Assembly (NCBI GenBank): GCA_938091745.1
Contig: CALLJK010000009.1
Location: 94,844 to 158,843 of the forward strand
Reading direction: 5' to 3'
Length of the DNA stretch: 64,000 bases
Source: Candidatus Bipolaricaulota bacterium
GTDB lineage: Bacteria; Bipolaricaulota; Bipolaricaulia; RBG-16-55-9; DRXL01
Position numbers and translations under genes: made by a program. Every line of letters begins with the position of its first letter. The first letter of the stretch is position 1. Shown piece by piece: positions 39,196 through 39,618 of the stretch. Under the pieces are notes generated by a model. That model was not told the origin of the DNA and did no database searches. It was given only the letters and a program-made list of their open reading frames with translations.

Positions 39196-39224
39196 TTGAC
39201 ATAAAAAAATTTTTGCTCTATACT
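39196..39224 (+). promoter_or_regulatory. sigma-70-type promoter TTGACA-N17-TATACT
   Basis: ttgaca 39196-39201, AT-rich 17-nt spacer, tatact 39219-39224. Confidence 0.5.
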
Positions 39225-39463
39225 CACATTGGATATCTTGCGTATGGTGGTGCATAGCACGGATGAAAGGAGTATCAGAAAGGTCTGGGGAGATCGAGCA
39301 AAGATCTCTGCACTGGGGCCTCTGGGGTGCACCACGACGAGTCTCCTGTCACCTTCTCTTTCCCCTCTCTTGGAACATCTCTCGACCTTCGACCATTCCC
39401 TATACACTGATCAATCTATGAACCCCGTACCCTATCATCATACAAGGAGGAGGTGACATAGGA

Positions 39464-39535
39464 ATGCCGGCGAAGAAGAAAGCTGCCGCAAAGAAGAAGA
39501 CGACGGCGAAGAAGACAGCCAAGAAGAAGAAGTAA
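39464..39535 (+). CDS. candidate 23-aa Lys/Ala-rich basic micro-protein
   Basis: MPAKKKAAAKKKTTAKKTAKKKK, preceded by a strong Shine-Dalgarno sequence aaggaggaggtga and followed by stem-loops. Confidence 0.35.
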   Translation: MPAKKKAAAKKKTTAKKTAKKKK

Positions 39536-39582
39536 GAGAGCAGCCCTCGACAAAGTTTCTCCACCCCTTGTCGAGGGCCGAG

Positions 39583-39618
39583 GGTAAAAGGCTACCAGGG
39601 TCTGTTGGTAGCCTTTTA
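39583..39618. terminator. bidirectional intrinsic terminator between convergent genes
   Basis: gtaaaaggctacc-agggtctgtt-ggtagccttttac, a perfect 13-bp stem flanked by A/T runs on both strands. A second hairpin gccctcgacaa..ttgtcgagggc lies at 39543-39578. Confidence 0.5.

Follow-up and report, generated by a model that had tools for sequence, protein, structure and literature searches.

A conserved lysine-rich micro-ORF of the Bipolaricaulota and its possible control by translation of an upstream reading frame

Release of a ribosome-binding site by translation of an upstream frame, or a closely similar logic, is found in rpmI-rplT of the Escherichia coli IF3 operon, in MS2 coat-replicase, and in mok-hok, secM-secA and ermCL-ermC. 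In Salmonella, the translation of mgtQ releases the sequestered ribosome-binding site of mgtB (PMC8092293). The present analysis concerns a stretch of 64,000 nucleotides from a Candidatus Bipolaricaulota bacterium (contig CALLJK010000009.1, positions 94,844 to 158,843; hereafter the window, in whose own numbering all coordinates are given), where a micro-ORF (open reading frame, ORF) encoding a lysine-rich peptide of 23 amino acids is preceded by a long leader that harbours a second, upstream open reading frame (uORF). Comparison of this locus with its homologues suggests that translation of the uORF may unmask the Shine-Dalgarno (SD) sequence of the micro-ORF, and hence permit the synthesis of a polycationic micro-protein, in a two-step translational relay, a reading whose chances are judged to be about even.

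The locus agrees with the mgtQ-mgtB type in that the downstream SD is predicted to lie in a conserved helix whose other strand (hereafter the anti-SD) falls within the upstream frame, and in that this frame stops shortly before the main AUG. As in many such leaders, the peptide sequence of the Bipolaricaulota uORF is not conserved. It differs from that type in several respects: the uORF is long (42-60 codons) and the helix spans about 100 nt; the uORF starts inside a second conserved helix, P1, which would provide a two-layer gate; the regulated gene is itself a micro-ORF of about 20 codons; and no stalling motif or trigger signal was recognised. The mechanism proposed here is of a known kind, and the product and the architecture are new.

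With regard to the product, very small basic ribosomal proteins such as bTHX of Thermus and bS22 and bL37 of the actinobacteria offer one comparison. Like the micro-ORF, these are stand-alone genes of about 20-35 codons with highly basic products, overlooked by gene callers, and bTHX comes from a thermophile. Their lengths are fixed and they contain particular Arg, Gly and aromatic residues, whereas the Bipolaricaulota peptide is a variable repeat of Lys, Ala and Thr. Membership in these families was rejected in view of its length of 17-31 amino acids and the absence of any NCBIfam or PDB match at E ≤ 10, ribosome entries of the PDB included; no NCBIfam or Pfam family was matched above threshold.

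In Chlamydia, the translation of HctA (Hc1) is repressed by the small RNA (sRNA) IhtA (PMC3469542, PMC4355289). The Bipolaricaulota peptide resembles Hc1 and Hc2 in its extremely basic Lys/Ala(Thr) repeats, variable in number, and would resemble HctA in the tight post-transcriptional control predicted for it. Unlike Hc1 and Hc2 (~125-200 amino acids), however, it comprises 17-31 residues without a globular or DNA-binding domain, and unlike HctA, which is controlled by an sRNA in trans, it belongs to a different phylum and is proposed to be controlled in cis by a helix and a uORF. A 31-residue homologue scores 15.4 bits against the Hc2 family of Pfam (PF07382; cut-off 40) and 12.9 bits against that of NCBIfam (NF038052; cut-off 135), a resemblance that is compositional, and the window's own peptide has no Hc2 family match in either database. 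A literature search on lysine-rich micro-proteins and on Bipolaricaulota small RNAs found nothing relevant.

The micro-ORF, its leader and their conservation

The micro-ORF (39464-39535, plus strand) has its own SD and ATG and encodes the peptide MPAKKKAAAKKKTTAKKTAKKKK, which after Met-Pro consists of Lys, Ala and Thr only and contains no acidic or hydrophobic residue. The unit to which it belongs fills a gap of 594 nt between a divergent lipoprotein gene of the phospholipase D family (PLD-like; minus strand, start 39037) and a convergent gene of the Zn-dependent alcohol dehydrogenase/quinone-oxidoreductase family (hereafter ADH; minus strand, end 39632), the next gene 3' of the micro-ORF, and this gap has been left unannotated by the gene callers in two identical public contigs.

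Related loci of the main clade were found with a scan for the PLD protein, which gave 12 usable loci in species-representative genomes. All 12 are metagenome-assembled genomes labelled Candidatus Bipolaricaulota, Acetothermia or Fraserbacteria, or mislabelled Thermotogae; their PLD proteins are 77-88% and their intergenic DNA 69-87% identical to those of the window. A 20-mer from hairpin 1, a structure 3' of the micro-ORF, used as a metagenome query yielded nine further contigs, so that in the main clade the element is found between ADH and PLD in 12 genomes and nine metagenome contigs; L030, with a PLD identity of 75%, is an additional locus of this clade. Both the ADH-gap-PLD synteny and the element are kept in a second, distant subclade (PLD identity 61-64%) represented by four sequences, and the element was not found near PLD and ADH in more distant Bipolaricaulota with PLD homologues at 45-47% identity. 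Altogether, 24 distinct sequences of the Bipolaricaulota (OP1/Acetothermia), from two subclades, carry the element, with promoter, leader, SD, micro-ORF and the two 3' hairpins, as in the preliminary description, recurring between the same two neighbour genes, and synteny with the convergent ADH gene holds for all 24. Such recurrence rules out a chance pattern.

The micro-ORF is present as the preliminary description of the window had reported it, and homologues of 17-31 amino acids occur at each of the 24 distinct loci. All of them start with ATG, carry an MPAKKK-type N-terminus and a KKKK C-terminus and are composed almost exclusively of Lys, Ala and Thr, acidic and hydrophobic residues being absent. 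Each of the ten length changes inferred for the micro-ORF is a multiple of 3, and its Ala and Thr codons vary synonymously. The frames of the minus strand lack a conserved start and are shifted by 1-nt indels, and the coding strand is therefore taken to be the plus strand. The pattern points to coding constraint on the micro-ORF and not to an incidental frame, and the locus is, on this comparative evidence, a real, conserved and unannotated small gene for a lysine-rich peptide.

From the putative transcription start site (TSS, ~39231) to the ATG at 39464, the leader measures 233 nt, in agreement with the structured leader of ~240 nt noted earlier, and it is conserved. The islands of conservation in alignments A2 and A3 comprise GGTGGTG and its partner strand, GATGAAAGGAG, the hairpin P2, CCTGTCACCTTCTCT, (TAA)ACCCATGAAC and the SD GGAGGTGA, which is invariant across the main clade. 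RNAalifold, run on 18 leaders, predicts two long-range helices, P1 and a helix between the anti-SD and the SD. In P1, GGTGGTGCA / GGUGGUGCA (39246-39254) pairs with TGCACCAC / UGCACCAC (39328-39335), and the 5' domain so delimited (39246-39335, plus strand) encloses the uORF start and P2 (39288-39310). The consensus form of P1, GGUGGUGC/GCACCAC, is paired in 92.6% of cells across the 18 homologues; wobble changes occur in it, and at one pair two sequences carry a compensating change. P1 is seen in the minimum free energy structure of nearly all homologues; the long-range complementary segments remarked upon in the preliminary description are thus real. Its 5' strand, GGUGGUG, is invariant at every locus examined in both clades.

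The second helix involves the SD region AAGGAGGAGGUGACA (39444-39458, plus strand), whose core, AGGAGGTGA / AGGAGGUGA (39448-39456), stands 7 nt before the ATG and is predicted to form a duplex of -17.9 kcal/mol with a generic 16S rRNA tail, the second strongest among the start sites compared in the window; the SD is as well placed as had been described. About 100 nt upstream, the anti-SD CUGUCACCUUCUCU (39346-39359, plus strand) forms an inverted repeat with 39444-39458. The anti-SD resembles the 3' tail of 16S rRNA (in L004 it reads UCACCUCCU), is followed by a variable CU-rich tract and is itself an island of conservation inside an otherwise variable leader. RNAalifold pairs this island with the SD in a helix of 12 bp, and the SD helix of 13 bp has 95.3% of its cells paired across the homologues. 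When P1, P2 and the SD helix are taken together, 88.9% of the cells are paired; displacing the 3' partners by 1-3 columns lowers the figure to 39-56%. In single-sequence folds at 37 °C, the SD pairs with the same upstream segment at a probability of 0.85-1.0 in all 19 main-clade leaders, and in the eight homologues folded at high temperature its pairing probability does not fall below 0.85 even at 80 °C. In these folding models the SD is firmly sequestered in a conserved inhibitory helix, which means that something must open the helix. Neither the SD helix nor the uORF formed part of the preliminary description, and both are new, the uORF being the principal result.

The upstream frame and the proposed relay

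The uORF of the window (39263-39421, plus strand; 52 codons, MKGVSERSG...TLINL) starts at an AUG in the GAUGAAAGGAG island, inside P1 and 10 nt 3' of GGUGGUG, spans P2, the 3' strand of P1, the anti-SD and the CU-rich tract, and stops at 39419-39421, leaving 42 nt to the main AUG. Folding predicts that its start codon is for the most part unpaired, and the SD-like element before it, at a spacing of 9 nt (-8.6 kcal/mol), is within the range of the window genes. Alignment A3 contains 19 main-clade sequences, of which 17 have an equivalent open frame (51-60 codons); so do L030 (58 codons) and all four sequences of the distant clade (42-49 codons). A canonical uORF of 42-60 codons, beginning in the same island and stopping 30-50 nt short of the main AUG, is therefore present in 22 of the 24 distinct sequences. 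At the other two loci, L022 and L025, the canonical AUG is lost (ACG) and a 1-nt deletion brings an upstream AUG into the same frame; the rearranged uORF stops 1 nt before the main AUG, which is a classic coupling arrangement.

A second uORF in another frame (39244-39456; 68-71 codons), starting at the AUG of UAUGGUGGUG, was observed in the window's closest relatives only, and ends either at a TGA within the SD of the micro-ORF or just 2 nt ahead of its AUG. It is the start of this second frame that the 1-nt deletion of L022 and L025 joins to the frame of the main uORF.

The argument for the uORF rests on the phase of its indels. The distance from its AUG to the anti-SD, which can be read without alignment, takes the values 82, 85, 88, 91 and 94 nt, all ≡ 1 mod 3, while indels of 1-2 nt are frequent in seven flanking non-coding segments. 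When the indels were counted by the Fitch method on a neighbour-joining tree, 10 of the 15 uORF events proved to be multiples of 3, compared with 3 of 26 in the flanking non-coding segments (one-sided Fisher test, p = 4.7e-4); all five events in the first uORF segment are of this kind. The distance from the anti-SD to the stop island falls into two residue classes, which coincide with the choice of stop, either the TGA within AUGA or a TAA that lies 8 nt upstream. A comparable stop island in two frames, UGAGAUAA/G, is seen in the distant clade. The peptide itself drifts: the ratio of non-synonymous to synonymous change (pN/pS) is about 0.8 in all three frames, the substitutions have no codon-position bias and no Pfam match was obtained, on which grounds a conserved protein of 52 amino acids was rejected. 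As judged from these comparisons, the sequence of the uORF peptide appears to be under no selection and to drift neutrally while the frame is kept; the indel phases show the frame to be under constraint although the sequence is not conserved, and together with the predicted accessibility of the AUG and the SD-like element they are indirect indications that the uORF may be translated. A uORF visible by the phase of its indels, and not by sequence conservation, represents a useful signature for regulatory uORFs in metagenomes.

A sequestered SD together with a frame-conserved uORF running across the anti-SD makes unmasking by way of the uORF a better reading than either a ligand-operated switch or a non-coding sRNA. 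In the proposed relay, a transcription unit of ~390 nt (from ~39231 to ~39620), driven by a near-consensus promoter, would have a polycationic micro-protein of ~20 amino acids as its product. In the resting mRNA, the SD AGGAGGUGA would be locked with the anti-SD ~100 nt upstream in a helix of ~13-14 bp, and the micro-ORF would be silent. Ribosomes would initiate on the uORF at its accessible AUG, after the SD-like GGUGGUG and inside P1, traverse the 3' strand of P1 and then the anti-SD, terminating at a stop codon 30-50 nt ahead of the main AUG. On their way they would unwind the anti-SD:SD helix and also open P1, favouring further ribosome loading, and the freed main SD would then permit initiation or re-initiation and the synthesis of the oligolysine peptide. 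The signal for uORF initiation could be breathing of P1, co-transcriptional loading before the 3' strand of P1 has been made, or a trans-acting factor. Since the act of uORF translation alone would matter, the frame and its end-point would be expected to be conserved and the amino-acid sequence would not. So tight a post-transcriptional gating is consistent with a product that is harmful if over-made. The layered control so envisaged, from a masked uORF through a long-range SD lock to the micro-ORF, would be a clean natural example of its kind.

Several points weigh against this relay and have to be set beside it. The covariation in its helices is modest: seven pairs are changed on both sides, a number reached by 6 of 500 shuffles, and the covariation score is reached by 71 of 500; the helices draw their support mostly from conservation and wobble changes. 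The AAG-rich micro-ORF can pair with the CU-rich leader as an alternative to the SD pairing, and part of its conservation could act at the RNA level through this complementarity. All three leader frames are stop-poor, which makes an open uORF weak evidence when taken alone, and the phase argument draws on about 15 inferred events in related sequences. In the second uORF segment 5 of 10 Fitch changes are multiples of 3, a proportion attributed to arbitrary ancestral states and one real frame switch. In the distant clade GGUGGUG stands 22 nt before the uORF AUG and cannot be its SD there, so that its invariance needs another cause; the one that suggests itself is pairing in P1. Nor does the relay model account for the invariance of hairpin 1. 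Finally, the comparison speaks directly to the conservation of all the elements, the sequestering helix, the uORF geometry and the constraint on the frame; transcription and its start site, translation of either ORF, their coupling, the controlling signal and the function of the peptide are inferred.

As for that function, the peptide is most likely, on its composition, a polycation that binds nucleic acids non-specifically in the manner of a histone-H1 tail, Hc2 or protamine. Its variable repeat number and its restriction to Lys, Ala and Thr are more easily reconciled with such a polycation than with a ribosomal protein that fits a defined binding pocket. From the amino-acid composition of its ORFs, by a rough IVYWREL estimate, the window seems to derive from a thermophile growing at ~74 °C. 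A broader proposal, put forward tentatively and held to be possible but rather unlikely, is that a subclade of thermophilic Bipolaricaulota encodes its own oligolysine (17-31 residues) as a polyamine- or protamine-like polycation that neutralises and stabilises DNA, RNA or ribosomes, and that its synthesis is tied to the translational state by a masked-uORF relay not described before. If the peptide is indeed a nucleic-acid polycation, some thermophiles would encode a function usually credited to polyamines or histone-like proteins. Few peptides of this sort would be as short or as extreme as a nearly pure oligolysine that has a consensus promoter to itself. The micro-protein family is new; it comes from a candidate phylum without a cultured model and escaped the gene callers in all the contigs examined.

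Other explanations of the locus

The explanation that survives best beside the relay, although an unlikely one, is that the 5' domain with P1 and P2 acts by itself as a sensor (a riboswitch, a protein or peptide autoregulatory site, or a thermosensor) and that the uORF is a dispensable by-product. Conservation extends to both P1 and P2; GGUGGUGCAU does not vary in either clade, including the one in which it is unable to act as the SD of the uORF; the 3' strand of P1 stands ~10 nt 5' of the anti-SD in the usual layout of an expression platform; and the largely open state of all three leader frames would make an open uORF unsurprising. The interior of P1, however, is poorly conserved except for the uORF start island and P2, and has no conserved junction core. 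The riboswitch that had been considered possible found no support among the known classes, as Rfam gave no leader match in 39225-39463 either at the gathering threshold or at E ≤ 10; the weak Rfam matches fall on hairpin 2 alone and are generic and terminator-like. Searched for with a covariance model, the 5' domain turned up once at each locus and nowhere else, upstream of no other gene, in a total of 273 kb that included the 64-kb window. A simple RNA thermometer was not supported, both P1 and the SD helix being predicted to persist to 80 °C or above, so that no simple thermal switch is apparent. A sensor also leaves unexplained the multiple-of-3 indels and the rearranged uORF of L022 and L025, with which, as far as the alignments can tell, the relay is more consistent than either the sensor or the next two explanations.

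The fold stability of the whole transcript is unremarkable (z = -0.6), the 3' hairpins being the one exception. A transfer-messenger RNA (tmRNA) or a tRNA-like RNA was likewise considered and rejected, as ARAGORN detected no such gene in 38900-39800, Rfam gave none either, and the ORF has its own SD and AUG.

Hairpin 1 lends itself to a different explanation, which is considered improbable: the locus would encode a regulatory RNA, either of dual function or derived from the 3' untranslated region, in which the C-rich loop of hairpin 1 serves as a seed against G-rich ribosome-binding sites and the ORF is secondary. Hairpin 1 (39543-39578, plus strand) begins 7 nt after the stop codon and consists of a GC-rich stem of 11 bp, GCCCUCGACAA/UUGUCGAGGGC (39543-39553/39568-39578), and the C-rich loop. 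In the 12 independently found genomes of the PLD scan it is, loop included, the most conserved part of the locus, the stem being invariant and the loop varying in length alone (3-5 nt, on the 5' side); hairpins 1 and 2 together have a shape typical of sRNAs from 3' ends of transcripts, and the promoter is very strong. In the distant subclade, however, the position of hairpin 1 and the CCCUCG/CGAGGG core are kept and the loop sequence is lost, while the micro-ORF, its SD and the uORF are retained. Sites complementary to the loop occur in the window at chance rate (2 found, 1.7 expected), and the loop was rejected as an sRNA seed. That the SD is near-perfect and does not vary within the main clade, that the ATG is conserved and that changes in length stay in frame shows the micro-ORF to be under coding constraint, which speaks against the sRNA with an incidental ORF that had been offered as one possibility. 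Hairpin 1 was also considered as a repeated element or a generic terminator and rejected as such, having no second copy in the window and metagenome matches at this locus alone.

Hairpin 1 is, apart from any such role, the most conserved non-coding element of the locus. Hairpin 2 (39584-39619, plus strand) follows it with a stem of 14 bp, GUAAAAGGCUACCA/UGGUAGCCUUUUAC (39584-39597/39606-39619), and a U-rich tail; its stem covaries across the homologues (GGCUACC/GGUAGCC versus GGCGACC/GGUCGCC), and the 3' region folds with a z-score of -5.6, both of the hairpins noted earlier being real. Hairpin 2 probably serves as an intrinsic terminator both for this unit and for the convergent ADH gene (end 39632). 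The bidirectional character claimed for it held in part: in the window an A-run precedes and a U-run follows the stem, but the hairpin was not flagged by a simple consensus scan for terminators, and the U-tract is weaker in most homologues.

A very doubtful explanation makes use of both hairpins, regarding the Lys-rich ORF as a leader peptide that senses Lys-tRNA supply or poly-Lys stalling, with the position of the ribosome at its end remodelling hairpins 1 and 2 and thereby setting antisense read-through into ADH. More than half of the codons are Lys codons, as in the leaders of amino-acid attenuators; a ribosome terminating at the stop, 7 nt before hairpin 1, would melt the base of the hairpin; and ADH is syntenic at every locus. 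However, there is no same-strand gene downstream, so that the locus is unsuited to classical attenuation; the two hairpins are separate from each other, and no conserved pairing alternative to hairpin 2 is found; the number of Lys codons and the ORF length (17-31 amino acids) vary widely, the distance from stop to hairpin 1 varies by ±1 nt, and an elaborate upstream gating of the SD would be superfluous for a sensor peptide. An attenuator of the trpL/hisL type was accordingly rejected, as ADH lies on the opposite strand and the two hairpins neither overlap nor compete. The suggestion of a small basic protein under riboswitch or attenuator control can therefore be retained for the small basic peptide gene and for a regulated locus, but neither for a riboswitch nor for an attenuator.

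A functional gene on the minus strand, encoding a Phe/Leu-rich hydrophobic peptide in the manner of a type I toxin with the plus-strand RNA as antitoxin, is effectively excluded: the ORFs 39400-39564 and 39416-39553 do encode F-rich and L-rich peptides, but hydrophobic antisense frames arise automatically from AAG repeats, most homologues offer no start codon for the Phe frame, which is also shifted by 1-nt indels between the repeat and hairpin 1, no minus-strand promoter was detected, the plus-strand peptide has no hydrophobic residue, and the locus is single-copy and vertically inherited, unlike toxin-antitoxin modules.

Promoter, neighbouring genes and other observations

A promoter of the sigma-70 type (39196-39224, plus strand) precedes the leader, as the preliminary description had it, with TTGACA (39196-39201), a spacer of 17 nt, TAAAAAAATTTTTGCTC (39202-39218), and TATACT (39219-39224). 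It agrees with the consensus at 11 of 12 positions. Both hexamers are invariant, and the A7T5 spacer nearly so, in all 19 aligned main-clade loci; the promoter of the distant subclade is TTGACT-N17-TATACT, with the same -10 hexamer. Spacers are seldom so nearly invariant as this A7T5 sequence, which hints at bending of the DNA or at a bound factor, and one may speculate that the AT-loving polycation itself autoregulates the unit by way of this spacer.

Upstream of the -35 hexamer, at a distance of 11 nt, is the palindrome GTGACCAAGATCAC (39171-39184), a GTGA-N6-TCAC sequence with a CRP-type core, centred ~53.5 nt 5' of the putative TSS and present in a single copy in the window. It is kept at the 12 main-clade genome loci and missing from the distant subclade, and may be a transcription-factor site or operator for the micro-ORF promoter or for the divergent PLD gene.

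The divergent neighbour (37193-39037, minus strand) encodes a lipoprotein-like protein of 614 amino acids with two PLD domains, a homologue of which is annotated as a cardiolipin-synthase-like enzyme in one public source. It is linked to the micro-ORF by conserved synteny, and no further functional tie could be inferred.

On the other side of the locus, between ADH and recR, two overlapping ORFs of 104 and 190 amino acids (40654-41525, minus strand) are absent from L026, L029, L030, L031 and L034; their absence from these five loci marks the pair as a lineage-specific insertion. The product of 104 amino acids has a sub-threshold resemblance (21.9 bits; cut-off 27.1) to PBECR2, a nuclease family of the Barnase/EndoU/RelE-like type, and the two ORFs may represent a toxin-antitoxin pair. 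The dnaX ORF (42518-44076, minus strand; 514 amino acids), given the same length in public gene predictions, overlaps a tRNA gene (44005-44076) by ~58 nt, and the true dnaX start probably lies further downstream. Two regions, 10001-14000 and 48001-56000, have a G+C content of 0.46-0.49, compared with 0.55-0.58 in the rest of the window, and may have been acquired horizontally.

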